IMG/VR virus record: IMGVR_UViG_3300032218_003260
Strand: one strand, 5' to 3'
Source: a virus
Taxonomy: Duplodnaviria > Caudoviricetes
DNA: 64,000 bases
The stretch's first letter is position 1; every line of letters starts with the position of its first letter. The notes under the pieces were generated by a model, which made no database searches, was not told the DNA's origin, and worked only from the letters and a program-made list of their open reading frames with translations. Positions 7,616 through 53,514 of this stretch are shown here, piece after piece. The translations under genes and the position numbers were made by a program.

Positions 7616-8759
7616 TGTTTAGTCCGTCTAATCCGATGTTGCTCGTATCTTCCGCTAAAACTTTGTATGTATTTTCTTGCAGAAGAAACGGCATTGACGC
7701 ATTTTGATCAACAAACCCGAAACAAAGCGTGCAGTAATACTCGGGAACCGTGTAGTGGAACGTCACACTACTCATTGTCCCGTCGATGCGAATGATGTTG
7801 AAACCCTCTGCCCCAGTAAATTGCGTGTATTGCGTGGGGCTTACTTGATTTAGATATGTTGTTTGCGACCACGACTCGCTCGTTAATGCCCAGATAGGCG
7901 TAAACGGTTTTGGCGCGCCGTTTTCATCAAATACAAGCACTGGCACAGTAGTACCGGGACTACCGACACTGGCAAATGCAACTAGGGCGTCTTTGATAGG
8001 TTGACTAAACACCGCTGTAAATACACCGGCCTGCGTGTTTGCAATTTGTTTGCCGCTTGGCGGTACGCCGTATTCTGGCGGGAAAATCTGCGGTTGGTAC
8101 ATGCCGCTGTGCTCAAACATTCCACCGCCGCTCTGGTTAATTGCGACTGTGATGTTGTTCTGCCCGATTCCAGACGCTGTGGTGGAATCTATGCTAAGCA
8201 TTCTCATCCACTTGAAACCAGAATCGCCAGTACACGAAGCGTCATCGCAAGTCGCTAACGGGTTGTAATTGTCGGCGGCTGGGTTCGTGCAGCCATAAAC
8301 GCACGGAATACATGACCCGTCGTCGCACGTTGCGTTAGGGTTGTAGTTAGTGGCCGTGTTATCCATGCAGCCATTAACACACTGCGGGCAAACCTGCTCG
8401 GCCGCAAACGGAGCCGGCCAATTTACCAACCACGGCCGGGCCGCATAACTGTACGCCCGCGCAAGTTCTCCGTATGTATCATTTGTGTAAAGCCATACGC
8501 CCGTCTCATAGCGAACAACTTCATCACCGTATTTATAAGTTTCTCGCCCCCACGGCGCGTATCCAATAGGAGAAAGAGTGCGCTCGCCCGCGACCCAGCC
8601 CGTCATTTTGACCGGAGCAGTTGCCTCAGAACAACACGAGTCGCCGCGGCAAAACACCAAAGTATCGCCTACAAACACACGTTCAACGTCGTCATCGCCT
8701 ATTTTGATAGACGTGATATTAGCGCTGCCTATGTATGTATCGCTGTCTACTCTTGGCAT
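7608..8759 (-). CDS. Tail-fibre/adhesin-like protein with Cys-rich GCxDxxAxNYNPxAxxDDxSC repeats
   Basis: 383 aa; N-terminal IKIGDDDVERVFVGDTLVF fibre-type motif and two Cys-rich repeats. Confidence 0.5.
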   Translation of the reverse strand: MPRVDSDTYIGSANITSIKIGDDDVERVFVGDTLVFCRGDSCCSEATAPVKMTGWVAGERTLSPIGYAPWGRETYKYGDEVVRYETGVWLYTNDTYGELARAYSYAARPWLVNWPAPFAAEQVCPQCVNGCMDNTATNYNPNATCDDGSCIPCVYGCTNPAADNYNPLATCDDASCTGDSGFKWMRMLSIDSTTASGIGQNNITVAINQSGGGMFEHSGMYQPQIFPPEYGVPPSGKQIANTQAGVFTAVFSQPIKDALVAFASVGSPGTTVPVLVFDENGAPKPFTPIWALTSESWSQTTYLNQVSPTQYTQFTGAEGFNIIRIDGTMSSVTFHYTVPEYYCTLCFGFVDQNASMPFLLQENTYKVLAEDTSNIGLDGLNNA

Positions 8760-8764
8760 AGCGA

Positions 8765-9082
8765 TTACCCGGAAACAATGTAGTACACAGTTGCCGGGTC
8801 TTTAGTCTGCAGCGCGTTATAATCGGTTTGCGTAATTTTGACGATGTTTGTAATTACCGTTGCGCCCTGAATTTCGGCGACGTCGCTCTCTACGTAGTTG
8901 TTATCCGCGCCGCCAATCTGCACAGCCGTTGTGTCTTCAAGCCCGGCATACAGTTTGTTTGCGTTTTCGTCGTACAGTATCTCGCCGGGCTGCACGTTGA
9001 TCGGCGTCGGGTCTAACTCGCTAACAACGTCTCGGCGTCGATGCGGGAAATGCAGCGCGCGAAATACACGTGTGTCAGGCAT
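8765..9082 (-). CDS. Small tail-fibre-associated protein
   Basis: 105 aa; PGEILYDENANKLYAG and C-terminal ITQTDYNALQTKDPATVYYI, patterns typical of phage fibre proteins. Confidence 0.5.
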   Translation of the reverse strand: MPDTRVFRALHFPHRRRDVVSELDPTPINVQPGEILYDENANKLYAGLEDTTAVQIGGADNNYVESDVAEIQGATVITNIVKITQTDYNALQTKDPATVYYIVSG

Positions 9083-9097
9083 AGTAGCACTCCTTAC

Positions 9098-9517
9098 TTA
9101 GCGCAGCATTGGGGTTTCAACGGTAACGGTCAGCACGAAATTCTTAGCGCCGGAACCGTTCGGTTTGATCCAAAGATATAAGAACCGCTGCGGATTTGAC
9201 GGAGAACCGTCGCGGTTCAGATACGCCACGTTAATGTTGCTGTTTTCAGCAATCGCCACGACATCAGGGTCAGACACGACATCGGCAAAATCGGCAAGGC
9301 TGAGAACATGAAACGCCTCGGCCGGCAGCGATGCGTTCGGTTCCGTCTCCTGATTACTTGAATACAGGTCGGCCTCAAACTTGTTGTTGCCGCCACTTGT
9401 TTGCACAAGCGCATAACCGCGCAGGATACCGCGATGCGGCATCTTCACCGGTACGATTGTTTCACTGCCGCTGGTAGCTGTGAATGTAGTTGTGCCCGAC
9501 CAAATCGTGCTAGCCAT
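9098..9517 (-). CDS. Beta-rich hypothetical virion protein
   Basis: 139 aa ORF with RBS, in the operon. Confidence 0.55.
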   Translation of the reverse strand: MASTIWSGTTTFTATSGSETIVPVKMPHRGILRGYALVQTSGGNNKFEADLYSSNQETEPNASLPAEAFHVLSLADFADVVSDPDVVAIAENSNINVAYLNRDGSPSNPQRFLYLWIKPNGSGAKNFVLTVTVETPMLR

Positions 9518-9527
9518 GTTTCACCTA

Positions 9528-11909
9528 TTAAGCGTTTGCGATAGCGCCAAGATCAATATCCTGCGCGGCTTCTTCCGGGTACGGCTCAATCGTCTTCTGC
9601 TTGAGGAACAGAATGACGTCGCCTAGCATTTCAAACGCGTTGCGCAGCGAGTCTTCCAGTTCCGGCATGTCGGCCTTGCCGTAACGTTCGGCAAACCGGT
9701 CACCGTGCCAGTAGAACATGAACAGGATACGGCCGAGCTTATCGAGGCCCTTGGTCAGCTCGCCCATGTACCTATCGACAAGCGAGTCGTCTCGAACGGC
9801 ACGCAACATGGCGCCGACCATCGCGGTGTCGAACACCTCGCGCTGTCCGCTCTGCGCGGCATCAATAACAGAACGAACGTCTTTTTGGTCGAGCAGCGTA
9901 TTCGGGTTGTAAACGCTGCGGTCCGTTTGACTAGCGCTCATGCCCGGCACCTGCATGGCGGTATCAATGCCAAGCTGTGTAGGAACGTTTGTGCCCATGA
10001 TACTTTCGCCGCCCATTACCGGACCCGGATCAGTCGGCGCTGACGGAGCGCCGTTGATCATCATCGGGCCGCCGTACGGGTCGGCGTACTTAACGCGGCA
10101 CTCAAACTTGCGCTTGGCGGCCGCTTGTTTCAAGATCTCGCGGGCAGCCTGCTCGCGGAGGCCGTGGTGTTCCACTAGCGTAACGAGCGCTTTGATCGGG
10201 TTCAGGTTGGCTTCTTTGTTAATCGTTACCGACGAGCCGTTGTGATAAACCGTCAGCGCGGCGGTCTTTTGCATAAGAGCCAGTTGCGCGTCAACAAGGT
10301 TGCCGGGCATCAGGGCCGGCGGATCACTCTCACCACAACCACATGCGTTCTGATCTTCCGCGTTTTCGGCGTCATCTTCGCCTTTGCTCACCTTAAGAAG
10401 CTTGAAACCCTCCGGCACAAAAATGTCGCCCATGCTGGCGCGCAGGCTGGAACCCTTTTTACCGTTAAGGTGAATTCGAACACCGTCGCGGTACTTGTCG
10501 TAGTTCAGCGGGTCGGTATAGCAGCTGCCGCAAACGCTGCCCTTGGGCGGATACTTTGAGTGATCCTCAAGATGCACTTCGTAAATCGTGCTATCTTCGC
10601 TATTGCCGTACTCTTTGATCACGCGAAACGGCGCAGTAGTGTCGTTACGTTTGCTGAGCGCAATGTAACGGGCATCCTTGCTCGGAACGCTGTTGGCTTC
10701 CGGCAGGCTGTCAAACCACTTGTCAAACTCTTCGCCCTCAATGCGCGCCAGCGCAAAGACTTGGTCAGCGCGGGTGTTTAACCAGTTACGCGCGCCATCG
10801 ACGCGCACGACGGTGATGAAGTTTTCACGCTTGACGGCGCCTTGCGGATGTACGGCAACGTAGCAACGCTCGATGTTGCCCGGCTTGACCAGAATCTCGT
10901 ACAGGCCGCTTTCGGTCGGATTAAACAGCTTCTTTTCGACCTGAATGTGATACGGCACCGAGACGTTGTCGCGGTCGCGCTGGTCTTGGATCAGCACGCC
11001 GTCGCGCAGTAACTTCTCCTGATCTTCTTCCGTGTAGCCGTGCGGGGCCTTGGTCTGCACCGTCGCATCATACGTGATGACCTTCAGACCGGCTTGGGCG
11101 GCGGGTTTCTTGGGCGCTTCGGACAGCACGCTGGCTATCTTGGCGCTGGCGGCGAGTTCACGCTTCTTCGCTTCGGCCATCGCTTCCTTGATGATATCTA
11201 AACCATAGAATTCATCGATGGCGGAGGCGATCTGCGGGGCGTGCTTGCACGTGTTAATAAGCGTGCCGATTACTTCACGGCCAGCCTGTTTCAGAAACGT
11301 CTTCAGGTTCAGCGCGTCGCCCATTTCCTTGAACGCCTGCGCGGTATTTAACGTAGCGCTCTTGGCGAGAGCCGGCATCGCAGCCGTCATCATCTCTTTG
11401 AGTGTGGGCTGCGCAGAGCCAAACTTGGCCGGGCTGCGCGAAAGCTGCGTAAAGTCCGGTTGGCGCTGGCCCATGCCCGACAGGTTGCGTTGCACGCCGC
11501 TACCCAGAATGTTGGGCTTGCGGTTGATCAGGTAGTTAATCCAGTTTTCCTTAAGCGGTACGAACATGTCCTGATTTTTGATATACAGGAGTTCGTGGCC
11601 TTTGAGGTCGCCGTTGAGGAAGAACACCGGCGCATACAGCCAGTTAGAGCCAACCTTGAACGCAAAAACACCAACCGCCTTGGTGTTTTCCCGGTTACGG
11701 TCGAGAAGCTGGAAACCAATTTCGTGGTCGAGCAGCTTGGGGGCCGAATCGCGCAGATAGGCGTGGGCCAGATTGCTAAACGACTGCTCGAAGGAGGTGT
11801 CGTCGCCTTTGCCGCCTAGATCGGCATATTTGGTCTGGGTGCGGTCATACGACTGCATTACCTTCAACCAATGCTTAACAGACGACTCTTTCGCTTTTTT
11901 GTTATACAC
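9528..11909 (-). CDS. Large multi-segment structural protein with many K-x-A motifs
   Basis: About 790 aa; probable GTG start 6 nt after GGAGG; KYA, KSA, KIA, KTA, KEA and KQA motifs separate globular blocks. Confidence 0.7.
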   Translation of the reverse strand: MYNKKAKESSVKHWLKVMQSYDRTQTKYADLGGKGDDTSFEQSFSNLAHAYLRDSAPKLLDHEIGFQLLDRNRENTKAVGVFAFKVGSNWLYAPVFFLNGDLKGHELLYIKNQDMFVPLKENWINYLINRKPNILGSGVQRNLSGMGQRQPDFTQLSRSPAKFGSAQPTLKEMMTAAMPALAKSATLNTAQAFKEMGDALNLKTFLKQAGREVIGTLINTCKHAPQIASAIDEFYGLDIIKEAMAEAKKRELAASAKIASVLSEAPKKPAAQAGLKVITYDATVQTKAPHGYTEEDQEKLLRDGVLIQDQRDRDNVSVPYHIQVEKKLFNPTESGLYEILVKPGNIERCYVAVHPQGAVKRENFITVVRVDGARNWLNTRADQVFALARIEGEEFDKWFDSLPEANSVPSKDARYIALSKRNDTTAPFRVIKEYGNSEDSTIYEVHLEDHSKYPPKGSVCGSCYTDPLNYDKYRDGVRIHLNGKKGSSLRASMGDIFVPEGFKLLKVSKGEDDAENAEDQNACGCGESDPPALMPGNLVDAQLALMQKTAALTVYHNGSSVTINKEANLNPIKALVTLVEHHGLREQAAREILKQAAAKRKFECRVKYADPYGGPMMINGAPSAPTDPGPVMGGESIMGTNVPTQLGIDTAMQVPGMSASQTDRSVYNPNTLLDQKDVRSVIDAAQSGQREVFDTAMVGAMLRAVRDDSLVDRYMGELTKGLDKLGRILFMFYWHGDRFAERYGKADMPELEDSLRNAFEMLGDVILFLKQKTIEPYPEEAAQDIDLGAIANA

Positions 11910-11990
11910 GGCCAGCCTCCATGCTGCGCTCAAAATTAGACACAGCATTAATTTACTGCGTCGCGGTCCCTATATCCTACAAAAACAGGT

Positions 11991-13871
11991 TCAAGGCTTC
12001 CACCCGCTTGTTGCGCCTGTTACACCGAATTGCTCGCCGTGGGCTAAAGAAGGCACATAACTGCTGCCCGCGGTATCGCTGCTTAAACCGCGCTGCACGC
12101 TGTTCATAAGCCCTTTTTCTTGATACGAGCCCAACATACGGGTCATCCAGTCAGGGTCGTTGGATATGTTAGCCATACCGCGGACCATTTCAGGCTGGAA
12201 CGGCGGTGGCTCTTTGTGCGCTTGAATTGTTTTTACGCCGTATTTGTTTAGGTTTGTCAGCACGTTTTTACCGATCTTCGTGCCGATTGAATAGTGCAGT
12301 ACTGGTTTTTCTAAATAATGCCCGGTCAATGTGCTGGGTGCGGCAGATACGCTACCTTCACGCGGAGTCCAGTTTCGTTCGATCGATGAATACGGCACTA
12401 CATCATCTGGCACATAATCGCCATATTCGTCCGTGAGGCGCACATGATTTACAAGCCCACGCGCCAGTAGCTCGATGTTGCGGCGATGAGCTGTAATACC
12501 GCTGTTACCCATGACCTGCCGCATGGCCTGCACAAAGTAACGCCGCCCCTCGCCTACGCCCTTGTGGCGGACAATTTCTGCCGGATTTGGCATACCTTCT
12601 GATATAACGTCGCCAGCCTCAAGCTCATCGCCCTTTTTAACCGAAAGATTTCTCTCCGTCGGAACGTAGTGGTCCTGACCGTTAATCTGCACATAGTGGC
12701 CGCCCTGCGGAGCCGGACGAACTTCCTGTACCCGGCCGTCAAGCTGGGCGTGCACGGCGCCATCTGGATATTTCTTCGGGACCTGTACAAGCGCGTTGAG
12801 CGCTTTAAAACCCGAAATCGCGCCTGCGCCGCCGACACCGCCAGAATGCTTCGAGCTGATCTGGCTTTGCGTGACTGGTTCCGACAGCGCTTGTGCTGCC
12901 GCGATACCCACATAATCTCCAATAGGCGGTAAACGCCCCTTTTCCCTGTAACCGACGTCTTTCGCATAAACTCCACCGTCTCCCGGGCCGCCGACAATCG
13001 GACTGCGGACTAAGATATCTTTAGCGCCGCTTTCTTTCAGATCCCGCAGAATTTTGGGCGTCAGCATCGTATTGCGCTTGTACGGCCCAACGGCTCGCGC
13101 AAGAAAAGCGCCTTCATTGTCGGGGTCGTCTACGTCAGTCGGGTAGCCGCGCTCTTCTGCGGCCATGCGCCGCTCTTCGTCCGTGTCGTCATCGTCGTCG
13201 GCTGTAACCAGCAGGCGGTGCGTCATCTGCGCCAGCTGTTTACCGTAGAAACCGGCGTCAGCTGTAGCCGTCTTGAGGTCGATAACACCTTTGCGCGTGC
13301 CGAATGCTCCGGCAAAATATTCCACAGGCCGCAAGCCTTGGCTGTACCCGCGCAGCACCGGAATTGGAATCGGGTCGCCGCGGTGATCGAGGTACTGCAT
13401 GTCGGCGCCAATAATTGAGTTCAGCTGAAACTTGTTGCCCACGCCCGCCCCAGAAATCTGATGCGCGAGTGGGTTATCTTGCCCCTCAGCTTCTTTATAC
13501 ACTTTGTCTAGCAGCTCTTGTTGCGCGGTCTGCGCTAGTTCAAGCAACTTGATGTTGCGCTGTTTTTCATCAAGACGCTTGTCAGCAAAGAGATCGCGCA
13601 TCTGGTTCTGCACGCGCAACTGCACGTGTCGCGCGGCCAGCGTGGGGCGAATGTCTTTGAGGCTGAACGACAGGCCGTTTGTGGTATATCCAGCGTCGCG
13701 ACCAATATCGTGAAGCCGCTTCATCACGTCACGATATTTTTCTGGGTGGTTCTTGGCCAGATCAGTCGCCACGTTTGACATAGTTTTTTTATTCAATACG
13801 CGATCATAGTCGCGCATTTCTGGCGGCAACGCCTCGTTAATCAGAAGTTGGCCGAGCGTTGTCTTTAGCAT
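11991..13871 (-). CDS. rpoC: DNA-directed RNA polymerase, beta' C-terminal polypeptide
   Basis: 626 aa; YSQGLRPVEYFAGAFGTRKGVIDLKTATADAGF (bridge-helix region), GIAAAQALSEPVTQSQISSKHSGG (trigger loop) and RRNIELL. Confidence 0.92.
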   Translation of the reverse strand: MLKTTLGQLLINEALPPEMRDYDRVLNKKTMSNVATDLAKNHPEKYRDVMKRLHDIGRDAGYTTNGLSFSLKDIRPTLAARHVQLRVQNQMRDLFADKRLDEKQRNIKLLELAQTAQQELLDKVYKEAEGQDNPLAHQISGAGVGNKFQLNSIIGADMQYLDHRGDPIPIPVLRGYSQGLRPVEYFAGAFGTRKGVIDLKTATADAGFYGKQLAQMTHRLLVTADDDDDTDEERRMAAEERGYPTDVDDPDNEGAFLARAVGPYKRNTMLTPKILRDLKESGAKDILVRSPIVGGPGDGGVYAKDVGYREKGRLPPIGDYVGIAAAQALSEPVTQSQISSKHSGGVGGAGAISGFKALNALVQVPKKYPDGAVHAQLDGRVQEVRPAPQGGHYVQINGQDHYVPTERNLSVKKGDELEAGDVISEGMPNPAEIVRHKGVGEGRRYFVQAMRQVMGNSGITAHRRNIELLARGLVNHVRLTDEYGDYVPDDVVPYSSIERNWTPREGSVSAAPSTLTGHYLEKPVLHYSIGTKIGKNVLTNLNKYGVKTIQAHKEPPPFQPEMVRGMANISNDPDWMTRMLGSYQEKGLMNSVQRGLSSDTAGSSYVPSLAHGEQFGVTGATSGWKP

Positions 13872-13872
13872 G

Positions 13873-14112
13873 TCACGGCGTCCACATTATTTTCTGCATC
13901 GACTTCGGCTGAAATTCGGACACGACGACCGTTTTGTCGACACCGAGTGCGCGCAGCAGCGAGTGAAACTCTTTCTCGCCAACTGTTGAGTAAACAATGG
14001 CTTCATCAACTTGAATAGCAACAAACAGCGGATTGCCGAGATCGTCTTCGACAATCACGCTGTGTGCTTTTTTTTCGCTGGGCTGCAGACTGTGTTGCGT
14101 TTTAACCAGCAT
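13873..14112 (-). CDS. Small hypothetical protein between the RNAP subunit genes
   Basis: 79 aa, abutting both neighbours. Confidence 0.55.
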   Translation of the reverse strand: MLVKTQHSLQPSEKKAHSVIVEDDLGNPLFVAIQVDEAIVYSTVGEKEFHSLLRALGVDKTVVVSEFQPKSMQKIMWTP

Positions 14113-14830
14113 TGTCCGCTATGCTCCGAATCATGGCGGCGATAGCGTTTGCTTTGATTTGCATCTGCGTCGGCGCGTTCGGATTGGAATAGCCGGGGCC
14201 GAACGGGCGGCCGATCGAAGACGCTGATTTTTCGTGGCGGTCCCACCACGCGGCCTTCGACGGGTCACCTTCTGGCGGCGCGGCGTTCGGCGGCATGGGC
14301 CCGCCCGGAGGTGTCGGGCCGCCCGGCGGCTGCATACCGCCCTGCGCGTTTGGATCTTGCGGCGGGGGCGCCATAGGCCCGCCCGGAAGCGCAGTTTCGG
14401 CCGGCGGGGCGCCAGTCGTTCCCGGCGGCAGGACTAGCGACTCCGGCGGAACCTGCACGCCCATCGCGTTCATAATTGCAGTAAGTTGCTGCTGCATGTT
14501 GTACAGACGATAGTCGAGCATTTGCATCATCTGCTCGGGCTTGAGCTTTTGCTGCGCACCAGCAGGAGCTGCGCCCGGAGCGGCGGGTGCGGCGGGCGCT
14601 GCGGGAGGTGCAGCGGGAGGCGCCATTCCCATAGCCGCTGGATCTGCTGGCGGTGCCGCTGCTGCAGCAACAGCAGACGGATCGGCCGGCGGTACAGCCC
14701 CCATGGCGGCTGGGTCAACCGGCGGAGCACCACCAGCAGCAGCGGGATCCACCGCCGCTCCGGGCACTAATGCAGATTTTTCAAAACGCGCTTTCGCGAG
14801 CGCGATAAGTTCGGGGTTGACCGTGAACAT
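14102..14830 (-). CDS. Pro/Ala-rich putative virion protein
   Basis: 242 aa; GGAGG RBS; EKSA motifs near both ends of a low-complexity core. Confidence 0.65.
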   Translation of the reverse strand: MFTVNPELIALAKARFEKSALVPGAAVDPAAAGGAPPVDPAAMGAVPPADPSAVAAAAAPPADPAAMGMAPPAAPPAAPAAPAAPGAAPAGAQQKLKPEQMMQMLDYRLYNMQQQLTAIMNAMGVQVPPESLVLPPGTTGAPPAETALPGGPMAPPPQDPNAQGGMQPPGGPTPPGGPMPPNAAPPEGDPSKAAWWDRHEKSASSIGRPFGPGYSNPNAPTQMQIKANAIAAMIRSIADNAG

Positions 14831-14850
14831 ACAGCCTCCATGTTTAACGA

Positions 14851-17800
14851 TTACGTATTATCTTCCACAATATGAACCGGGGTGTCCACCTCTATTTCGC
14901 CTCGCCGGTACGCCTGCACGGCGTCCTGCTTGCTACGAAACACGCGGGGTTTGGCTTTTTTACTGATCCGACTGGACGCCAAGTATAACCCAGTCTGGTA
15001 GTCTTTGTTAGGAACGTAGTGCGCCCGAAACGTCGCTGTTGCAAACAAGTTCTTGCTTGGCAGCATCTTTTCAACAGCTTCTTTTGCGGCGTCTTCTGTA
15101 CTCGGAACGTGATACTGCATCGCGTCGCCGTCAAAGTCGGCGCCAAACCCCTTGGTAATTACGGGGTTCACTTCCATGACTTTGTTTTTAGTTAACTTGG
15201 GGTAAAACGCCATCATGCCGTAACGGTGAAGTACTGGGGCGCGGTTGATAACAATTGGCCGCGATGACATCTGCTGATTTAACTCAGCAAACGCTTCTTT
15301 GTTCTTATCCTCGACCGCCTGCATGGCCTGCATACGCGGGAGGCCGCGGCGGACAAGGCCGCGGACAACAAACGGCTTGTAAATGTCCCACGCCTTCTCT
15401 TCTGGTAGCGCGACCTCGTCCATGTCGAGATCGGGGTTTGGTGTGATGACAGCGCGGCCGACAAGGTCTACCGTCGAGCTGAGCAGCTTACGCTGAACAG
15501 TGCCGTACTTAGGCGAGTTGCCAAACACGTGCCGCAGGAAACCTTTGACATTACGCTCGACGTTCTTGGGCTGTTGCGGCTCGCCTAACCCGGTAACAGC
15601 CTTCATCGAGTCGTACACGCTCAGGCGTTCGTCGCCGTAGTCAGATAGTGCGCCAGACGCTTCTTTCAGCGTATCGTTCGCGTCGAGCAGTTCTTTGTAC
15701 AGATAATTAGCGTCAGCAACGAGCGGTAGCTTCTTGCTACCCATCGTGCTGACGGGGCGGAAAAGCGGCGGCAGCACCGGGACTTTACTGATCATCCAGT
15801 CCTTGGGGTGCACGCCGGTTGTTTCAGCGCTCTTTAAAAATCCTAGCCGCCTTACTGCGGCGTCGCGCAGTGTCTTACGCCCGGATTTGATATCTTCCCG
15901 CGCCTGTTCGATCGCCTTCGGCAAGTTAATTCTTTCCAACGCAGATTTAATCGCTGTGGGACCGGTTTTATCGCCTAGCTGCTCTCGGCCAGCCAGCACA
16001 CCACGGAACTGCTTCTCGGTCAGGCCCAACACGCGGCGAATCGGGTCTTCCATGACGGGATTGGGCAGCGGCTCATGCAGCGTGATCTTGCTCCACCGGT
16101 TACCGCCGTGTCCGCCTGTTAATGTCTCGTCAAATAGCCCACCGGCAATAGGCTTGAGCCGCCCTTTCCAGTCCACGGTCTCAGAACTTTTTAACTCGCG
16201 TGGGCCGGCTAGTTCGTCGACGTCCTTGTCCGTCATCGCCATCAGGTTTGAACGGGTGCCCTTGCGCACAACGTTGATACCAGACGCTTTCAGCTGCGTG
16301 ACGAATTTCTCATAGACGTGCGGCACTTTGGGCAGTGGCGGGGTGTAACCAGCCATGAACTGCGACCAGTACTCTGGGTTAGCTTGGCCGCGCACCATCT
16401 TGGCGTCGCGAATAACTTTGCCGGCGCCGTGAGATAGCAGCGCGCCAAGATCTAACATACCGATGCGCTTGGCGCCCTCACTGCCGCCTTTCGCTGGCGT
16501 ACCTTCGGCGGTATACGCGCCCATCGACCGGCCCTGCGCCTTTGATTCACTGGTGTGATGCAACTTCATGAAAAACCGATTACCCGTGAGCACACCGCCG
16601 ATTTTGCGGCCTGTTTCTGGATCGATTACATCTTCAGTGTCGGACAACCCGTGCGCGGCTAATTCTTTTTGCGCAAACTCAATTAGGTCGCGCTTGTTAT
16701 CAAAATCTTTGAGCTTGTACGGTTTGCCGGTTTTGGCAGCAACTTTACCGAGCGCCGCTTCAATCACCTGCGTGGGGTTAATACGGCTGATCAACCCCAA
16801 CGGCGAGACCAGCACTTCAAACGGGTTGCCGTCGCGGTCTTTGGGCATCTGATCGTCCGGGACAATCTCGGCCACGACGCCTTTATCGCCAAAGCGACCG
16901 GTAAGCTTGTCGCCTACGTCCATGGGCGATTGATTCTTCACCACGACGCTGACACCCTTTTTGGTGTGCATAACGTCGGTCACAATTCCGGGCGCGTGAT
17001 GATCCCACGTAATCGTTTCGTTAGTGAAGTTACCGGCGCGCCCACGATGCACTTTGCCGTACACTGTGTCTTTCTTTTTGGCCACAAGTACGAGCGGATC
17101 GCCAAACTTGACCTCGGCGCCTTTTTTAATCGCGCCATTGTCGTCAAATTGATCAAGAAACTTTTTGTCATACTCAGTCGGGAACAAACTCACGAACGCC
17201 TTCTTGCCAACGTGAGTGTTGTCGTCCCACTCGGCTTCGTGCTGATACATATGCTCAGACGTCAGCCGCTTGGATGCAGATTCAGAAATAACTACAGCGT
17301 CTTCGTAGTTCTTGCCGCGAAAAGGCAAATACGCTGTACGCAGATTAAGCCCTAACGCTGCGCTACCGTTTTGATCAGTAAAATTTGACCTTGCCAGCAG
17401 CTGCCCGGGTTCGATCGTGTCGCCGGGCTTTACAAGCGGCGTCTGATGTAAGAACGTCTTACGGTTGTACGGCATCTCGTTATAGAGATCGATTGTCTTC
17501 TTATTACCGTCTTTGTCGCGCAGCACGATACCGTCGGGTGTCACGTCAACTACTTGTGCCCGCTCAGTTGCGCGCGTGGCACCAAGTTTCTCGCCCATCT
17601 CGTCTTCGTGCGAAACGTTTTCATCATCAGCTTTAGCGGACTGCAGTAAGGGCGCTTCAGCGTTTACGAGCGGAAGCGCCTGCGTAAACATTCGACTGCC
17701 CATGATCACACGATGGCCTTTGATCATGGATTTAATTGGCACCATGTTCGTGAGGGCCGAGAACGTCGTGTCCATGTTCGGCAAACTGAACTGCGCTTCT

Positions 17801-19254
17801 TTCCGCGGTACGTACTTCAGTTTGCCGTTAACAAGCGCAGCCACAACGGGCAGGTTGTTATCTTCTTCACCCGGAAACACGAGCGGCGTGTCGGCCAGCT
17901 CTTGCGGTGTTTTGTACACCTTTTCACCGGTTTTCATATCTACAACCGGCGTGTATATCTTGCCGTCGGAGCCTTTCATGGCGCCGCGGGCAAACCGCAT
18001 GTCGACGCCCACTTTTCCAGACTCGGGCGTGCGGAGGTAGTCAATAAACCCAAGATGGCTGGGCTGGACCGAACGCGACTCGGCGGGCACGGCGTCCAGT
18101 GAGCCGATGCCGCCTTCGCCCATTCGGGTCACGCGCGTCTGATGGTCAAAGATCTCGGCCGGGTTGATTTCTTCTAGGCTCGACCCAAGTCCGCTGCCAA
18201 TGAGCGCCGCCGAGATAGCTTTGTCGAACACGCCTGATGGGATGTGATCGATTGACTTCTTTGCGGTTGCTTTCCAGAGCAGTTTGTTAAGAGATTGCCG
18301 GTCTTTGGTAAACCGCTCGGCAATGAGGTCTTCAGGGCCGACAACGGACTGGTACACCATGTTGTCGCGGTCGTCGCTTTCGGCCTCGCGGCGATTCACT
18401 GCGATTAATTTTTTAGTGATCGCCAGAATAGTCTCTGGCGTCATGTTTTTGTATTCAGACCCCAGAGTGCGACGTGTAACTTCCGGGTCAAGTTCGGTCT
18501 TGGCAAACTCGGCGGCGATGGCCTGCGCTTTGGCAATAGCGTCTGCGCCGGCGACGGGTTTGTTTACAAGGCGCGCGTAGATCTTGTCCATCGTGCCCGC
18601 GTCGCCCTTCTCCATGTTAACCGCGGTAATCTCGTTGCCCCACGCCTTGCGAATATCTTGATCGGTCACGCCCATGGATTTGAGCAGCGGCATAAGCGGG
18701 ATCTGCGCCTGCCCGATGCTGATCTTGAACACGCCAGTCTTTGGGTCGAGGAAGTACCGATGCGAACGACCCTTACCCGGTAACGTGTTTACGTGCGCCT
18801 CGATTTCGCCGTTGTCTTTTTCGCGGGTAAACACGCCGGGGCGCAACCGCATCTGATGCGCAAGGGTGTACTCAACGCCGCCGTTAACGAACGTGCCAGA
18901 GTCAGTGAGATACGGCACGTGGGCTATCGTGGCGCGGCGTTGGCCGACGGGTTGGCCGGTTTTGTTATCTGTAAGCGTCCACGTACCTTGCAGCCGGCGG
19001 GCAAGTGTCCCTCTAGAAAGGACAGCTGTCTTCTGATCTGACCTTGTAAAACGTTCAGGTCCTGTGTAACCAACGTCTTGGAGTTGCAACGTATACAGGT
19101 CGTTTTGCAGCGGTTTGAGGCTCTGCGCGCTCGTCAACGCCTGATTGAAGATGTTATCGCGCATCATGCCAACATCGCCAAATGTGCGCATCGTGGGCGC
19201 AGCGGGCGCGGGCATCATCGACGACTTTAACTCAGGCAGCTCGGGGGCTGGCAT
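14851..19254 (-). CDS. rpoBC: DNA-directed RNA polymerase, fused beta + beta' N-terminal polypeptide
   Basis: 1467 aa; beta motifs GDKLTGRFGDKGVV, MKLHH and GAKRIGMLD; beta' motifs KPIAGGLFD, VINRAPVLHR and catalytic GFGADFDGDAM. Confidence 0.95.
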   Translation of the reverse strand: MPAPELPELKSSMMPAPAAPTMRTFGDVGMMRDNIFNQALTSAQSLKPLQNDLYTLQLQDVGYTGPERFTRSDQKTAVLSRGTLARRLQGTWTLTDNKTGQPVGQRRATIAHVPYLTDSGTFVNGGVEYTLAHQMRLRPGVFTREKDNGEIEAHVNTLPGKGRSHRYFLDPKTGVFKISIGQAQIPLMPLLKSMGVTDQDIRKAWGNEITAVNMEKGDAGTMDKIYARLVNKPVAGADAIAKAQAIAAEFAKTELDPEVTRRTLGSEYKNMTPETILAITKKLIAVNRREAESDDRDNMVYQSVVGPEDLIAERFTKDRQSLNKLLWKATAKKSIDHIPSGVFDKAISAALIGSGLGSSLEEINPAEIFDHQTRVTRMGEGGIGSLDAVPAESRSVQPSHLGFIDYLRTPESGKVGVDMRFARGAMKGSDGKIYTPVVDMKTGEKVYKTPQELADTPLVFPGEEDNNLPVVAALVNGKLKYVPRKEAQFSLPNMDTTFSALTNMVPIKSMIKGHRVIMGSRMFTQALPLVNAEAPLLQSAKADDENVSHEDEMGEKLGATRATERAQVVDVTPDGIVLRDKDGNKKTIDLYNEMPYNRKTFLHQTPLVKPGDTIEPGQLLARSNFTDQNGSAALGLNLRTAYLPFRGKNYEDAVVISESASKRLTSEHMYQHEAEWDDNTHVGKKAFVSLFPTEYDKKFLDQFDDNGAIKKGAEVKFGDPLVLVAKKKDTVYGKVHRGRAGNFTNETITWDHHAPGIVTDVMHTKKGVSVVVKNQSPMDVGDKLTGRFGDKGVVAEIVPDDQMPKDRDGNPFEVLVSPLGLISRINPTQVIEAALGKVAAKTGKPYKLKDFDNKRDLIEFAQKELAAHGLSDTEDVIDPETGRKIGGVLTGNRFFMKLHHTSESKAQGRSMGAYTAEGTPAKGGSEGAKRIGMLDLGALLSHGAGKVIRDAKMVRGQANPEYWSQFMAGYTPPLPKVPHVYEKFVTQLKASGINVVRKGTRSNLMAMTDKDVDELAGPRELKSSETVDWKGRLKPIAGGLFDETLTGGHGGNRWSKITLHEPLPNPVMEDPIRRVLGLTEKQFRGVLAGREQLGDKTGPTAIKSALERINLPKAIEQAREDIKSGRKTLRDAAVRRLGFLKSAETTGVHPKDWMISKVPVLPPLFRPVSTMGSKKLPLVADANYLYKELLDANDTLKEASGALSDYGDERLSVYDSMKAVTGLGEPQQPKNVERNVKGFLRHVFGNSPKYGTVQRKLLSSTVDLVGRAVITPNPDLDMDEVALPEEKAWDIYKPFVVRGLVRRGLPRMQAMQAVEDKNKEAFAELNQQMSSRPIVINRAPVLHRYGMMAFYPKLTKNKVMEVNPVITKGFGADFDGDAMQYHVPSTEDAAKEAVEKMLPSKNLFATATFRAHYVPNKDYQTGLYLASSRISKKAKPRVFRSKQDAVQAYRRGEIEVDTPVHIVEDNT

Positions 19255-19257
19255 GGA

Positions 19258-20115
19258 TCACCCCGCCTGCGAGTGCTCGACTTGTTTCTTCAGCGCGATG
19301 ATTTCGTCGGGGTCTACGTACGTCGGCAAAATACCGGAGATACGGGCCTTCGACTTTGCGGCCTCTTCAACCGCCTTGGCGCGGGAACGCTCGCGAGCCC
19401 GGTCGTACATAAGCTTCGCCGCGAGGCCGCCGAGCCCAAGCCCGGCGCCGACATACGCGCCGCCAACCGTAGCCGGAACGCGCTTTGCAACGTCGTACGC
19501 GCCTGTAATCCAATCGAGCAGCGCTGTTTTTTCTGCCGCCGCCTTTTCACTGGCGGTATCGTAAACACTGTCGAGCTGCTTGGCGCCGCCGCCGGTCAGC
19601 GCGTCGTAGTATTCTTTTTCCGCGTCGGCGATAGCGGCCTGCTGGTCGCGGCGTTTCTTGCGCTTGTGCATTGCATCGATCAACTTATAGCCGCCGTACA
19701 GTCCTAGTGCGCCAGCGCCGACTGTCGCGCCGGTTCCGAACGACGACCGGATCACGTTGGGGTCGTACGAGTTCGGTTTCTTTGGCGACGCGTCTGGCGT
19801 AAACGGGCGCAGAAAGCTCAAGACGGAGTCGGGCAGCGCCTTGCCAACACCTTCAGCAACGGTGTCGTATAAACCGGCCGCTTTGGTTTCAGTGATCTTG
19901 GGCGTCTCTTCATCTTCTTCTTCGTACTTCGGCTTGTTTAACGCCTGAGAAAGCCCGCGGGCCAGATAATAAAGACTAGCGGCACCAGCACCAAGGCCAA
20001 GCCCGCCGACACCAGTGCGCATAATACGATCGCCCCAGAAACGCTGGTAATCTTGGGCGGTAGGTTTGCCAACAGGGGCAGCGGGTGGGACGACATTGTT
20101 TGCTGATTTTTCCAT
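19258..20115 (-). CDS. Gly/Ala-rich membrane-segment virion protein
   Basis: 285 aa; three GxxxG hydrophobic helices separated by KAA/KTA motifs. Confidence 0.65.
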   Translation of the reverse strand: MEKSANNVVPPAAPVGKPTAQDYQRFWGDRIMRTGVGGLGLGAGAASLYYLARGLSQALNKPKYEEEDEETPKITETKAAGLYDTVAEGVGKALPDSVLSFLRPFTPDASPKKPNSYDPNVIRSSFGTGATVGAGALGLYGGYKLIDAMHKRKKRRDQQAAIADAEKEYYDALTGGGAKQLDSVYDTASEKAAAEKTALLDWITGAYDVAKRVPATVGGAYVGAGLGLGGLAAKLMYDRARERSRAKAVEEAAKSKARISGILPTYVDPDEIIALKKQVEHSQAG

Positions 20116-20127
20116 TGGTCGCGCTCA

Positions 20128-20475
20128 TTAGTGTTTGGGCGGAATCATGCCATAAACCTGTGCCCATTCAAGCCAGACACGAAAATGTTTATGCTCGTCG
20201 TCCCAATTGTCGGTTCTTTTTAACAGCCGATACCAACCGTTGACTATCTTATCATTTATGTTGTCAAATTCTGCTTTCTGCGCCGGATCCCACATCTCAA
20301 ACATGTGAGATTTAAAGTCATACTGGATATCGATGTTTTCCAGTTCATCTTGCTTTAAATCCGGCCGCTGCCCGCTTCCCAGCACAGGAAACCCGTCGAG
20401 GGTTCCCGGCCAGTTCAGTTGCGCGTTATTGTGCTGCGGGCCGCCAAGTTCGCCGTGATATTTGCGCAGGCTCAC
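20128..20475 (-). CDS. Hypothetical protein
   Basis: 115 aa globular-looking ORF in the operon. Confidence 0.6.
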   Translation of the reverse strand: MSLRKYHGELGGPQHNNAQLNWPGTLDGFPVLGSGQRPDLKQDELENIDIQYDFKSHMFEMWDPAQKAEFDNINDKIVNGWYRLLKRTDNWDDEHKHFRVWLEWAQVYGMIPPKH

Positions 20476-20478
20476 AAA

Positions 20479-20838
20479 TTACCTTTCTGGACGGTAGAGA
20501 CGTAACTTCTTGTTGGTCTTGGCTCGGGCCGCGTACGCTTTGTAAGCAGCGGCCAGTTCGCGGGCTTTCAGGTCTTCTTCGTCGACGTCTGGCTCCGTCA
20601 TCTTGCCGGCGAGATGCCCGGCTAGACCGCCGCCAACAGTGGCCAGCATAAGCGGCGCGTACGCGACGTTACCCAGCGCCTGCCACGAATCAGACATTGA
20701 GGGGAGCTGGAGCGCGGCGCCTTTTACAAAAGCTTCCGCGGCCTTGATGCGCGATTCCAGCGTGGGCCCTGTCAATTGTTCTTCCGCGCAACGTTGGAGA
20801 AACCCCAGCTTAAATGCTTCTTTTTCGGTGACATCCAT
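20479..20838 (-). CDS. Small glycine-zipper protein
   Basis: 119 aa; EKEAFKLGF leader and TVGGGLAGHLAG. Confidence 0.6.
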   Translation of the reverse strand: MDVTEKEAFKLGFLQRCAEEQLTGPTLESRIKAAEAFVKGAALQLPSMSDSWQALGNVAYAPLMLATVGGGLAGHLAGKMTEPDVDEEDLKARELAAAYKAYAARAKTNKKLRLYRPER

Positions 20839-20839
20839 G

Positions 20840-21334
20840 TCAGAAATCTCCGGGCAAAATAAGTTTTTTGGTTGGCGCCCCGACAGTGAAGTCGGGTGTT
20901 ACGTGCTTGCCGGTATCCTTACCAAGCGGTAACGCGCCCGGCAGCGCTGATGTAAAATTAGCGCCGCTGGCCATCGATATCTTACTCTTTCTGCCCGGGC
21001 GGTGTCGCATAAACCACGCGTCTACCGCAGGATCGTCCCGATCGCCCTGTTCTTTGGCTTCTTTTGTAACAGCAACCATATTATCAATTGCCTGCTGTAA
21101 TTCGGCGCGGTCTGCCGATAACCACGCGGCCTTGCCGGGGTTGTCAGCCGCAATCGTTCGCAGGCGTTTTGCCTCGTCGCTAATCGCCTGCGCGCGCTGC
21201 AGAAACTCTCGGCGTGTCAGAACGTAAAACTCGCCGGTAGATTCGTCATGAAGGCAGATAAAGCCGTTTTTGGCGTAAAATTTTAAACCGCGATAGCTGT
21301 AGCACTTCCCGGTCGATCCGTGAGCGGCGGGCAT
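20840..21334 (-). CDS. Hypothetical protein
   Basis: 164 aa ORF abutting its neighbours. Confidence 0.55.
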   Translation of the reverse strand: MPAAHGSTGKCYSYRGLKFYAKNGFICLHDESTGEFYVLTRREFLQRAQAISDEAKRLRTIAADNPGKAAWLSADRAELQQAIDNMVAVTKEAKEQGDRDDPAVDAWFMRHRPGRKSKISMASGANFTSALPGALPLGKDTGKHVTPDFTVGAPTKKLILPGDF

Positions 21335-21342
21335 TCAACACC

Positions 21343-21699
21343 TTACGTACGAGGAATAGGACAAACGCCGTTTTCGCAGTCGCTTGTTTTTACCGGCGGA
21401 AGCGGTTTAACTTGCAGCTTCATCGAAGGCAGCGGCGCCGATTCTTTTACGTTTCCCTTTGGCGCGCCGTCTTTTGGCTCGCAGTCCGGGCAGTCCGTCC
21501 AGCTGATGGTGTCGCCGGTGCGGATCTTGCCGGTACCGCCGCAGCGCTTGCAATCCTTGGTGTCGACCAGCGGTTTAACTACCGGCGCATCAGGAAGCAG
21601 AGCAGAATAAGCAACCTCTGCAGCGACCATCCCGATATAGTCTTTTTTGGGCGGTTCTGCATATGTCACCGGAAAAAATAACATAAGCCATTCAAACAT
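21343..21699 (-). CDS. Exported protein with a DnaJ-type CxxCxGxG zinc finger
   Basis: 118 aa; hydrophobic N-terminus, CKRCGGTG...CPDC. Confidence 0.6.
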   Translation of the reverse strand: MFEWLMLFFPVTYAEPPKKDYIGMVAAEVAYSALLPDAPVVKPLVDTKDCKRCGGTGKIRTGDTISWTDCPDCEPKDGAPKGNVKESAPLPSMKLQVKPLPPVKTSDCENGVCPIPRT

Positions 21700-21738
21700 A
21701 ATTTTACTCGCTACCCGTCGGTGTGTTAATCGTCTTGA

Positions 21739-22761
21739 TTAGATGTGGCCGCGGGCGCCGTAACTGGCCAGTTTCTTCGGCGGCCAGCCGTTTACTCCCG
21801 AGATCGCCACCATGTATCGATTTTTGAGATCAGACCATTTAGCCCAGAAAGAGCCAACAGGAATGTCAACGACAGTACCAAAAATACGGCGGCTTCCACC
21901 ATTCCACGCGCCCCAGCTGTTTTGAACTAATACAAGCGGCTCGCCGTAGAGTTTAATAATTTCTACGCGGTCGTCGACAGCCAGATAGGCAAGGGCATGG
22001 GCCCAACTTCCACGACGTGAACTTACGCCGTTTGTATCACGATCTGCTGAAAATCCTTCACTCCCGCAGCTACTAATGCAGTAACCGTTGGCAAGTAAAT
22101 CGCGCAGTGCTTCGTATGTTTCGACTTCCGTGATAGTCTGCACGCGGTGATTTTCGCCGACCTTGCGCCACGACTCAGGCGGTGTTTTGCTACCGTAAAT
22201 ACCGGCATTGCGTGAGCTGTACTGCGTAAAATCGACATCAATCTCGTCGTACTTTTTTCGCAGCCAAAGGCCAGAGTCGTTAAGCGCAACTTGGGCCGCT
22301 TCGGCACAGCTCCAACCGTCGCCACCGTGCCGGCGCCAGTTGTAAAACGCTTCCGTGCTGAGCACGCCGTTTAAACGCGCGGTATCGCTTACTTCCGGCG
22401 CGCCCTCTAGCTTACTGCTGTTGGGGTCTGGCACGCCGCTAGTAATCTCGCAGCACATTGTGCCAAGACAGGCATTGCGGGTCGACCAACTTACGCAGTC
22501 GCCGCGGCCCTGTGCGCCGCCCGGAAGCGAATCCGGGTAAAGCTTCAAAATTTCAAGAAACGGCAAGCTTAATTTACCTTTGCCAGTTTCTTCGAGTTTA
22601 AATGCCGAGCATGCCATGGCACCGTCGGGGATACCACCGGCGGATTGAATCTGATCGCGTAGCGCCGCGGCGGCTTCGTGATTGGCGTACGCCCCCACAA
22701 AGCCCGTTTCATACGCTGCCACAACATCATAGACGTGGTCAAAAAAATGCTCTGTCGACAT
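21739..22761 (-). CDS. Papain-like (C1) cysteine protease
   Basis: 340 aa; QGRGDCVSWS (Gln/Cys), WAHAL (His) and VQNSWG (Asn). Confidence 0.85.
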   Translation of the reverse strand: MSTEHFFDHVYDVVAAYETGFVGAYANHEAAAALRDQIQSAGGIPDGAMACSAFKLEETGKGKLSLPFLEILKLYPDSLPGGAQGRGDCVSWSTRNACLGTMCCEITSGVPDPNSSKLEGAPEVSDTARLNGVLSTEAFYNWRRHGGDGWSCAEAAQVALNDSGLWLRKKYDEIDVDFTQYSSRNAGIYGSKTPPESWRKVGENHRVQTITEVETYEALRDLLANGYCISSCGSEGFSADRDTNGVSSRRGSWAHALAYLAVDDRVEIIKLYGEPLVLVQNSWGAWNGGSRRIFGTVVDIPVGSFWAKWSDLKNRYMVAISGVNGWPPKKLASYGARGHI

Positions 22762-22779
22762 GGCGGCGCTCCGACATTG

Positions 22780-23208
22780 TTACTTTGCGGCCGAGTTAGC
22801 AATAGTTTCGCACGCCGCGATTAATTTAGCGAGCACTTCCGGGTTGTTCGGCATAACGTCATCGGTACCGACGGCCTTTAAAAACACCGACTCAATTGCT
22901 TCGTCGAGCCCGGGGTACTTACCGACCGTTTCAATCGCTAGATCAAGCGTGTTTTGTTGTACTTCTTCCCACTTTTCAGTTGTCGTGACGCGGCCGCCGT
23001 TGTCGCGCTTCAAAACGTAAACCAGCCCGCTGTACACGCCCTCGACGCGCGCTTTGTCGGCGGCGTCGGCCTTCGACAATAGCTCGACAATCTTCGCGTC
23101 TGTTGCGCCGGGTGGTTTTGTATTGACGGGGTTCGTTAGCGACAAACCGTTCGGAAATACAACCGACAGCAAAAGCAGCAAACCAGCAACCCAAACAATC
23201 TTTTTCAT
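22780..23208 (-). CDS. Exported or membrane-anchored protein
   Basis: 142 aa; MKKIVWVAGLLLLLSVVF signal-like N-terminus. Confidence 0.65.
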   Translation of the reverse strand: MKKIVWVAGLLLLLSVVFPNGLSLTNPVNTKPPGATDAKIVELLSKADAADKARVEGVYSGLVYVLKRDNGGRVTTTEKWEEVQQNTLDLAIETVGKYPGLDEAIESVFLKAVGTDDVMPNNPEVLAKLIAACETIANSAAK

Positions 23209-23498
23209 ACAACACCCTTTGACGGTTGTTCGTACTCCACAATCACGCGCAGCAACGCGGTGCAGGCTTCAACGCCAGCCTTGCAATCCTCGGCGGCCAG
23301 CTTGTCACGCAGGCGGGTCACGGCCAGAATGTCGTCCACAAGCGGCACGGCAATTGAGTCGTGAACGGTGGGCGCATTCGACGTGGCGACCGAAGAGCTA
23401 GTATTTACGCCCTTCAGTTTTGCCAGTAGTTCTTTGCGATACGCGACGAGTAAAACGGCGGCAAAAACCGCCGCGGATAAAAGCTGAAACGTTGTCAT
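23205..23498 (-). CDS. Small membrane-anchored protein
   Basis: 97 aa; N-terminal TM helix, GGAGG RBS. Confidence 0.6.
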   Translation of the reverse strand: MTTFQLLSAAVFAAVLLVAYRKELLAKLKGVNTSSSVATSNAPTVHDSIAVPLVDDILAVTRLRDKLAAEDCKAGVEACTALLRVIVEYEQPSKGVV

Positions 23499-23533
23499 AA
23501 TACCTCCAGTGTTAGCGCGTTGTATTTATTTTA

Positions 23534-24361
23534 TCACGTTTTTGGAACAAGTACATACGGACGACCATTGATAAGGATCGTGCCATTAATTTGTAATCCG
23601 GCATCTTTTGTAATCGGATACGCTTTTGTGCGTTTTCCGTACAGCTTGATGATCTCCGAGATGTCGCCTTCTTTCGGTTTTGTAACATTCGGATCGTAGT
23701 AGGGGGCCATCAGGTTGCCGGCGTTTAAATGCGGCAACCCGAGCGCGTGACCAAGTTCGTGGCAGATAACGGCAACGGCCATGTTGAATGACCAGTCTTC
23801 GGCTTCGTCAAACATTTGATCAAGCTGCACATTCTCGGCAACTCCGCACGGCAGCTCACTCCACGCCAACGTGCCGCCTTTATTATCTAAACCGTTCTTT
23901 TTGCCCATGCCGGAGCGCGCATAAATGTTCGCTTTGTTTGCCGTATCAACGCGCGTCGGATCAATCGCACACACCTCGGCCCACTGCGAAAACGCAATGT
24001 CGTACGCTTCGGCTACTTGAGTCGTGGTGAGCCCGGGTAGATGAATCTCGTGATAGTACGAGATGTTCGGCATCGGCCATTTGCACGGATCGCCGCCGGG
24101 AGCTGTGATATTGAAATCAGGCAGCCCGCAGCGCCGGCGATTGATGCGGTGCGCGGTCTTGGGGCCGACCGTGCCCGTCGGGTTCAGGCCGTTGAATTCC
24201 TGAAACGCCCGAACCGCTTTCTGTAGTTCAGCGCCTTTGAGTTTCTTGACCTGCGCCAGCGTTTTGTCGCCGAAATACCCCAGCGTGTGGAGCCGGCGCA
24301 AAATTTCGCTAATCGGCAGAACATGAGACTCGCTGGCTTGATTTGTTGGCTTCCGTGCCAT
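23534..24361 (-). CDS. Matrixin-like (M10) metalloprotease with a peptidoglycan-binding-like prodomain
   Basis: 275 aa; AVRAFQEFNGLNPTGTVGPKT (PGBD), RRCGLPD cysteine switch, HELGHALGLPH and the LMAPYY Met-turn. Confidence 0.88.
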   Translation of the reverse strand: MARKPTNQASESHVLPISEILRRLHTLGYFGDKTLAQVKKLKGAELQKAVRAFQEFNGLNPTGTVGPKTAHRINRRRCGLPDFNITAPGGDPCKWPMPNISYYHEIHLPGLTTTQVAEAYDIAFSQWAEVCAIDPTRVDTANKANIYARSGMGKKNGLDNKGGTLAWSELPCGVAENVQLDQMFDEAEDWSFNMAVAVICHELGHALGLPHLNAGNLMAPYYDPNVTKPKEGDISEIIKLYGKRTKAYPITKDAGLQINGTILINGRPYVLVPKT

Positions 24362-24381
24362 CGTGCGCGTCCTTGCAGATG

Positions 24382-48910: not shown

Positions 48911-48912
48911 TA

Positions 48913-53499: not shown

Positions 53500-53514
53500 T
53501 AGGTTCCTTTAGTT

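Follow-up and report, generated by a model that had tools for sequence, protein, structure and literature searches.

A bacterial-type RNA polymerase encoded as a beta-beta' fusion and a separate beta' chain in a lineage of large tailed phages

The locus spanning positions 11,991 to 19,254 of IMG/VR record IMGVR_UViG_3300032218_003260, a 64,000-nucleotide stretch of DNA (hereafter the window) from an uncultured lake phage of approximately 200 kb, specifies the catalytic core of a DNA-dependent RNA polymerase (RNAP) of the bacterial, two-barrel type, which is made of two polypeptides and which this tailed phage probably carries in its particles. Based on sequence, both halves of the active site reside on the first polypeptide, in which the whole of beta is fused to the N-terminal part of beta'; the second contributes the bridge helix and trigger loop together with what remains of the clamp and jaw. 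Multisubunit RNAPs are highly conserved, and departures from their usual layout are rare, among them the cyanobacterial and archaeal splits, the Helicobacter fusion, and the fragments of phiKZ. The layout described here, which combines a fusion with a split and is devoid of recognizable alpha, omega, and either structural zinc, is shared by 150 or more protein clusters defined at 50% identity.

The first gene is a single uninterrupted frame (14851-19254, on the minus strand, like all features of the window reported here) that encodes a chain of 1467 amino acids: beta in its entirety occupies residues 1-995, and a linker of 7 residues connects it to the N-terminal portion of beta', which includes the catalytic region. 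Pfam recognizes Rpb2_6 (2.6e-49), Rpb2_3, Rpb1_1, and Rpb1_2 (3.8e-24) in this chain, and among solved structures in the Protein Data Bank (PDB) bacterial beta chains match residues ~43-1019 (E down to 2e-68) and beta' chains residues ~1069-1464. The anatomy of both polypeptides was read from a MAFFT alignment to Salmonella RpoB and RpoC, according to which the beta portion (16270-19254) keeps all conserved regions through the C-terminal SLGINI motif (the Salmonella chain ends in SLGINIELEDE), lacks the lineage-specific insertions SI1 and SI2 of E. coli and other enterobacteria, and has a shorter flap tip. Its active-site loop, GRFGDKG (residues 786-792; 16879-16899), aligns to the bacterial form GRHGNKG with the lysine kept and, together with the Rpb2_6 match, identifies a bacterial-type beta barrel with its lysine loop. 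At the fusion junction, KASGINV/VRKG (residues 989-999; 16249-16290), the linker VRKGTRS leads into beta' at about E. coli beta' residue 20. Downstream of it are found the switch regions, the NRAPxLH motif, and a slightly shortened clamp coiled-coil (residues 1182-1220; 15595-15711; aligned to Salmonella beta' 262-309), which in bacteria is the surface for the binding of sigma region 2. The beta' barrel with its DxDGD Mg-binding triad is present as well, as the catalytic loop GADFDGD (residues 1371-1377; 15124-15144) retains all three aspartates and differs in its first residue, Gly for Asn. About 90 residues beyond this loop, at about E. coli beta' 568, the chain stops.

The remainder of beta' is supplied by a second gene (11991-13871), whose 626-amino-acid product begins MLKTTLGQ, at the position of the TTVGR motif of E. 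coli beta' (residues 572-576), and continues to the C-terminus of the subunit. This gene is recognized by Pfam as Rpb1_5 (5e-24), and residues 1-498 of its product match M. tuberculosis beta' 663-1187 (PDB, E=2e-37); when both phage chains are placed on the same structure, PDB chain 8i23_D, the fused chain reaches position 561 and the second begins at 577. PDB matches to the N-terminal 135 residues are limited to actinobacterial and a few other beta' chains. The second chain carries the rim helices, bridge helix, trigger loop, and region H, and has neither the SI3 insertion nor any cysteine. The bridge helix region (residues 175-219; 13215-13349) and the trigger loop (residues 324-350; 12822-12902) align to Salmonella beta' 769-805 and 926-940, respectively, and the GxRKG motif of the former (G191, R193, K194, and G195, in 23 family members) and the catalytic H342 of the latter are invariant in the family alignment. 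A Peptidase_M23 match in this chain (E=0.003) was below the Pfam cut-off, and was taken as the beta' barrel-sandwich hybrid motif rather than as a peptidase. A preliminary description of this DNA had proposed the stop-free beta-beta'N fusion, the two motif substitutions GADFDGD and GRFGDKG, and the end of the fused chain just before the TTxG motif that opens the next gene, and every string it quoted was indeed recovered in 14851-19254 and in the second gene.

Neither of the two zinc sites of beta' is retained. In comparison to Salmonella RpoC, the zinc-binding domain is removed exactly, by a 32-residue gap that takes away C70, C72, C85, and C88 and leaves both flanks (GLF... and ...RMGHIEL) in place, in agreement with the deletion originally reported. 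The deletion site, GGLFDETLTGGHGGNRWSKITL (residues 1038-1059; 16078-16143), reads GGLFDETLTGGHGG/NRWSKITL where the Salmonella protein has GLFCARIFGP, 32 further residues, and RMGHIEL. At the former second site (12948-13205) all four cysteines (C814, C888, C895, and C898) are replaced, partly by a poly-Asp tract: an acidic stretch, TADDDDD..., takes the place of DCGT, and GGPGDGGVYAKDVGY substitutes for C..GVCxxCYG. The two chains have, in fact, no cysteine in 2093 residues, for which the chance is about 2e-14 given a background cysteine content of 0.92% in the window and 1.49% in the relative G002, a complete genome of 204.6 kb; cysteine is likewise missing from 106 of 111 intein-free close homologues. 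In the window, the run of six genes at 11991-20475 (2814 amino acids) is unbroken and contains no cysteine at all.

Fusion and split are shared by a large family. An exhaustive HMMER search covered 1.84 billion cluster representatives, and the 150 best (from clusters at 50% identity) were taken; all 150 are fused, with 44-60% identity to the window protein, and in 145 of them a single BLAST alignment runs across the junction (residues 1000-1080). The split point is the same, within 15 residues, in 385 of the 386 homologues that reach the C-terminus, and beta'C sequence follows in none. A word-indexed search returned more than 120 clusters at 75% identity or above, nearly all of ~1460 residues and on contigs of up to ~205 kb, and IMG/VR holds 50 loci, several on contigs of ~200-205 kb, one of which has terminal repeats; three ~205-kb relatives that were examined are 100% complete by CheckV. 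When unfused relatives of beta'N were searched for, only fragments and intron- or intein-split pieces of the fused family were returned, and a search of the window at the DNA level against phage records gave no match. As fusion and split are fixed across the relatives, they are best seen as ancestral, selected features and not as artefacts.

Cultured phages have them too. Salmonella phage Arash (OQ632216) encodes a fused chain, gp206 (1525 amino acids; 32% identity over 99% of the query), and a separate beta'C, gp216 (606 amino acids; 24% identity), with the same break before TTxG, the same deletion of the zinc-binding domain, a single RNAP set, and a sigma-like factor, gp10. It differs from the window in that the second zinc site is kept (four cysteines), the catalytic loop reads AADYDGD, nine genes lie between the RNAP genes, seven of which are encoded on the opposite strand, and the portal gene is found just upstream; furthermore, the gene for a SNF2-family ATPase (gp217) adjoins that for beta'C, whereas in the window the ATPase is at 42735-45290. 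Vibrio phages D69, D148, and D181 (OZ195729 and others, ~187 kb) have a fused chain of 1527 amino acids (~31% identity) and a sigma factor; in these genomes the fused gene is followed by two tiny open reading frames (ORFs) and then by one of 609 codons, taken for beta'C on account of its location and length alone, and in D148 and D181 it is interrupted by a homing-endonuclease insertion. In D69 the two chains are encoded at 12001-16584 and 17223-19052, and the public records of the Vibrio phages annotate both chains as hypothetical proteins. The preliminary description had allowed that the same architecture might already be documented in characterized phages; it is present in Arash and in the three Vibrio phages, where the annotation reads merely 'beta subunit' or 'hypothetical protein'. 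We also asked if the fusion could be an artefact of assembly or gene calling, or the gene a decaying relic. We found no point to support this explanation, which we consider negligible in probability, as the frame is equally unbroken in four cultured phages and in over 380 homologues from independent assemblies, peptides from Arash cover 100% of gp206, and the catalytic residues are conserved.

The two motif substitutions, on the other hand, are lineage polymorphisms and not defining traits. In 119 close relatives the catalytic loop reads GADFDGD in 97, NADFDGD in 19, and AADFDGD in 2, so that the Asp triad (xADFDGD) is kept in 118, and the beta loop reads GRFGDKG in 100, GRYGDKG in 18, and GRHGDKG in one. 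The fused gene is also an intein hot-spot: 127 of the 150 distant representatives exceed 1560 residues, with lengths of up to 3350, and the inteins of these relatives carry Intein_splicing, LAGLIDADG, and Hint domains. Insertion is most frequent inside the catalytic GADFDGD loop (~residue 1375-1380), and other sites are near residues 410, 600, 825, 925, and 1240; the window copy is intein-free. Similarity to bacterial RNAPs is ~27-30%, no phylum is preferred, and the insertions typical of proteobacteria are absent, all of which makes a recent capture of the polymerase from a host unlikely.

One beta (PF00562) and one beta' (PF00623) catalytic locus are present in each of the three complete relatives and in Arash. 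Pfam-level sequence searches, which were positive in 14 of 14 control genomes, found no alpha (PF01000, PF01193) and no omega (PF01192) in these four genomes; at the sequence level, then, the alpha dimer and omega are not among the core subunits. This result is in line with the minimal two-chain enzyme initially proposed, with the caveat that a sigma70-like factor belongs to the system as well. The covalent tether between beta and beta' may take over the role of the alpha dimer in assembly.

An alternative to be weighed here is that the core is not minimal, and needs additional phage subunits that cannot be recognized by homology. The preliminary description was right about both RNAP genes; it made no mention, however, of two ORFs that separate them, which encode 242 amino acids (14102-14830; Pro/Ala-rich) and 79 amino acids (13873-14112; 38-99% identity across the family). 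The former keeps its place between the RNAP genes in every related contig long enough to cover the region, and the stop codon of the latter is 1 nt from the beta'C start codon. Directly upstream of the fused gene are two further candidates (together 19258-20475), of 285 (19258-20115) and 115 amino acids (20128-20475), and the 285-residue ORF stops 3 nt before the start codon of the fused chain. All four ORFs are cysteine-free, positionally conserved in about 40-50 related contigs, and translationally coupled to the RNAP genes, and there are precedents for such subunits in phiKZ gp68 and AR9 gp226, fifth subunits without detectable sequence similarity to cellular factors. Gene spacing throughout the operon is in fact 1-42 nt, or overlapping, and the order 285-residue ORF, fused chain, 242-residue ORF, 79-residue ORF, beta'C, and then an 806-residue ORF (9528-11948) is kept across related contigs, with 50 independent IMG/VR contigs sharing the same gene order at the RNAP locus. 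Homologues of the candidate ORFs were not detected in Arash, however, where the nine genes that separate the RNAP genes are unrelated, and Pfam, PHROGs, and the protein atlas returned nothing for any of the four, nor for the 806-residue ORF. A predicted complex of the 79-residue product with beta'C scored 0.00, which counts neither for nor against binding. Altogether, we regard the requirement for additional subunits as rather unlikely.

The sigma-like factor is a homologue of Arash gp10. In relative G002 its gene is found ~21 kb outside the stretch that matches the window, and its product has a Sigma70_r3 domain above the Pfam cut-off (38 bits) and a helix-turn-helix resembling that of region 4. 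It co-occurs with the fused RNAP in 5 of 5 complete genomes, which represent three deep clades. The window itself encodes a SNF2-family ATPase of 851 amino acids (42735-45290; Pfam SNF2-rel_dom and Helicase_C), an orthologue of Arash gp217 (34% identity, E=2e-71), which is a likely partner of the polymerase. SNF2 ATPases accompany RNAPs elsewhere, namely RapA with the bacterial enzyme and NPH-I with the virion RNAP of poxviruses.

Evidence for packaging comes from Arash. In the published proteome of sucrose-gradient-purified Arash particles, gp206 tops all proteins, with 3516 spectra, 128 unique peptides, and 100% coverage, and spectra were also counted for gp216 (1210), the SNF2 ATPase gp217 (1148), and the sigma factor gp10 (467) (PMC10585845). 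From these counts and the protein lengths we computed ~2.0-2.4 spectra per residue for all four, a result compatible with a roughly equimolar complex. The Arash proteins gp218 and gp222 were detected in particles as well (PMC10585845). In the window, the 806-residue ORF next downstream of beta'C is a weak homologue of gp218 (tblastn and phmmer, E=1.5e-8), and gp222 has a homologue of 485 amino acids (2859-4316; 36% identity, E=9e-30), the order of these genes being that of Arash. The major capsid protein gene, of which the window edge leaves the N-terminal part (1-369), was identified through the collinear relative G002, where Arash capsid protein gp226 matches the counterpart of this region (56610-57551; E=8e-35). 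In G002 the RNAP genes, the gp218-like and gp222-like genes, the major capsid protein gene, and the tail genes follow one another on one strand, as they do in Arash. The location of the locus inside a virion operon, as first described, is thus borne out by a co-directional block with homologues of gp218 and gp222 and the capsid gene, and the evidence that the enzyme is packaged is indirect, through the particle proteins of Arash. For this phage and its close relatives, packaging and activity are read entirely from the genes and from homology to Arash, and we consider virion packaging of the RNAP in this phage likely.

Cysteine content sets the same proteins apart. In G002, only 12 of 192 ORFs encode cysteine-free proteins of at least 250 residues, and among these are both RNAP chains and their two putative partners, the sigma-like factor and the SNF2 ATPase. 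Capsid, portal, and tail proteins, by comparison, have 2-10 cysteines. The four are counterparts of the proteins that are conspicuous in Arash particles. The rule is strong but not absolute, as the SNF2 ATPase of the window has two cysteines and the Arash polymerase five.

Several points, however, weigh against a packaged, self-contained polymerase. The Arash proteome lists 116 of 272 encoded proteins (43%) as particle-associated, ribonucleotide reductases among them (PMC10585845), and its specificity is therefore limited; identity to Arash, moreover, amounts to no more than 32% for the fused chain and 24% for the second. Arash gp216 retains the second zinc site, with its four cysteines, and gp206 has one cysteine, so loss of cysteine is not required for whatever Arash does. 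The sigma-like factor might redirect the host polymerase instead, and extra subunits that are divergent or non-homologous, such as the conserved 79- and 242-residue products, are possible. It could be, then, that the same two-chain RNAP is not packaged at all, and is a middle or late enzyme in a phage whose early genes are read by the host polymerase, with the Arash signal due to carry-over. The presence of nucleotide-metabolism enzymes in so broad a proteome would fit such an explanation, and the Arash authors, who suggest a role in early transcription, also allow for carry-over of abundant infection proteins (PMC10585845); in addition, the sigma-like factor could act with the host enzyme, as phage sigma factors usually do according to the literature (PMC7598289, PMC13282480). 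The RNAP genes, however, are located inside the late head and tail block and not among early genes, gp206 is the single most-detected protein in the particle proteome, polymerase, sigma factor, and ATPase are represented by equal spectra per residue, and an enzyme confined to the cytoplasm offers no easy explanation for why precisely these proteins are free of cysteine. We judge the non-packaged enzyme to be improbable and favor packaging.

If the polymerase is packaged, a more specific proposal can be made, to which we give tentative support and somewhat less than even confidence: that of a self-sufficient injectable machine in which a two-chain, alpha-less, zinc- and cysteine-free RNAP, its tether replacing the alpha-dimer platform, would share the capsid with approximately equal amounts of the sigma70-like factor and the SNF2 ATPase, and would be threaded through the tail, refold, and transcribe. 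In the packaged reading favored above, synthesis of the RNAP would take place late, alongside head and tail proteins, and it would be packed into the capsid with the two partners; once ejected into the host, it would initiate early transcription without need of the host polymerase. The absence of metal and cysteine would be an adaptation that eases unfolding, passage through the tail, and refolding, and, as the sole polymerase encoded, the enzyme may also serve later gene classes.

Among known systems, the phage two-barrel RNAPs of phiKZ and AR9 likewise lack alpha and omega, and one of their sets travels in the particle and is injected (PMC7598289, PMC7824862). Their beta' is described as split after the catalytic barrel; the split in the window lies ~90 residues past the loop. 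In phiKZ and AR9, however, beta is in two or three pieces and never fused to beta', whereas the window beta is one continuous module of 995 residues; each genome has two paralogous RNAP sets, virion and non-virion, as opposed to one in the window relatives and Arash; and these phages have phage-specific fifth subunits and no sigma70 homologue, whereas here a sigma70-like factor is found in 5 of 5 genomes. PHROG matches to the phiKZ/AR9 group are weak in bit score (22-99 bits). The rpoB-rpoC fusion of Helicobacter and Wolbachia is well established, and there too beta is joined head-to-tail to beta' via naturally adjacent termini; in these bacteria, however, the whole of beta' is fused, the zinc sites are kept, and alpha and omega are used, whereas the window beta' is cut ~90 residues past the catalytic loop. 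In cyanobacteria and plastids (gamma, RpoC1, and beta', RpoC2), beta' is divided after the catalytic double-psi barrel, as in the window, but gamma is not fused to beta. Cyanobacterial gamma chains (624-626 amino acids) align to the end of the fused chain at gamma ~553-563 and then continue for ~60 residues; compared through these chains, the cyanobacterial break comes after TTxGR and the phage break upstream, before this motif. The phage break is not, therefore, at the gamma/beta' boundary, and the split point deserves the adjective unusual it was first given.

Bacterial-like beta and beta' that form branches apart from the cellular enzymes are also encoded by other tailed phages, namely those of the mReC type (Weinheimer & Aylward 2020, PMC7481178), Vibrio phage Va2, and Rhizobium phage RHph_Y65 (Kleczkowskaviridae), but their beta' is a single chain of 1127-1192 amino acids with an intact zinc-binding domain and NADFDGD, and these unsplit subunits are 24-26% identical to the beta'N of the fused chain. 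The mReC survey required NADxDGD and at least 800 amino acids per subunit, criteria by which the fused-and-split family would be filtered out. The moraphages (PMC12619734) were considered as a possible earlier account of this lineage and rejected, as they encode no RNAP.

We found no description of this layout in literature to 2026 on the Arash polymerase, on fused rpoB-rpoC in phages, and in reviews of jumbo-phage RNAPs. The Arash paper names the two proteins 'beta' and 'beta'' and leaves fusion and split unmentioned (PMC10585845). The combination of a beta-beta' fusion with a split beta' is thus widespread and, in the literature searched, unrecognized. Recent reviews hold that RNAP-encoding (jumbo) phages lack sigma homologues (PMC7598289, PMC13282480), a view still stated in a review from 2026; the presence of an RNAP and a sigma70-like factor together is a counter-example to it and, if they work as proposed, would break the rule that phages encode one or the other, not both. 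Such a polymerase would possibly represent a second, independent case, after phiKZ and N4, of an enzyme of this kind carried in the phage particle, and a large group of phages, common in lakes and seas worldwide, would have no need of host RNAP from the first minute on. The family also offers a natural minimal core with which to ask what alpha, omega, and the zinc sites are needed for. Because a cultured member with a tractable host exists in Salmonella phage Arash, these hypotheses can be tested directly.

As for the regulation of the locus, sigma70-type promoters over 7000-26500 (6 found, 10 expected) and terminators over the same interval (32 found, 28 expected) were not above chance. A search for a host over genome contigs returned only two short contigs of one unclassified metagenome-assembled genome, and no host was assigned. 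Other genes of the window encode an M10 metallopeptidase with a peptidoglycan-binding domain (23534-24361), which may be a lysis or entry enzyme, a cysteine-free protein with 2H phosphoesterase and DUF5661 domains (26516-27961), a phage actin-like protein of the Volactin family (29416-30450; PF25216, E=2e-62), a PhoH-like ATPase (34381-35088), a trypsin-like serine protease (45303-46151) that may be the prohead protease, and an acyl-transferase or NAAA-like hydrolase (54394-55614). Finally, the sequence CTAAATA-N17-YATAT is present in 5 copies in the window (48882-57122), with 0 expected by chance, and in 6 copies in the whole 204.6-kb genome of G002, all within the corresponding stretch of ~6 kb. 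These sites, which are not linked to the polymerase, are candidate early promoters, and each copy has a short GC hairpin in its spacer.

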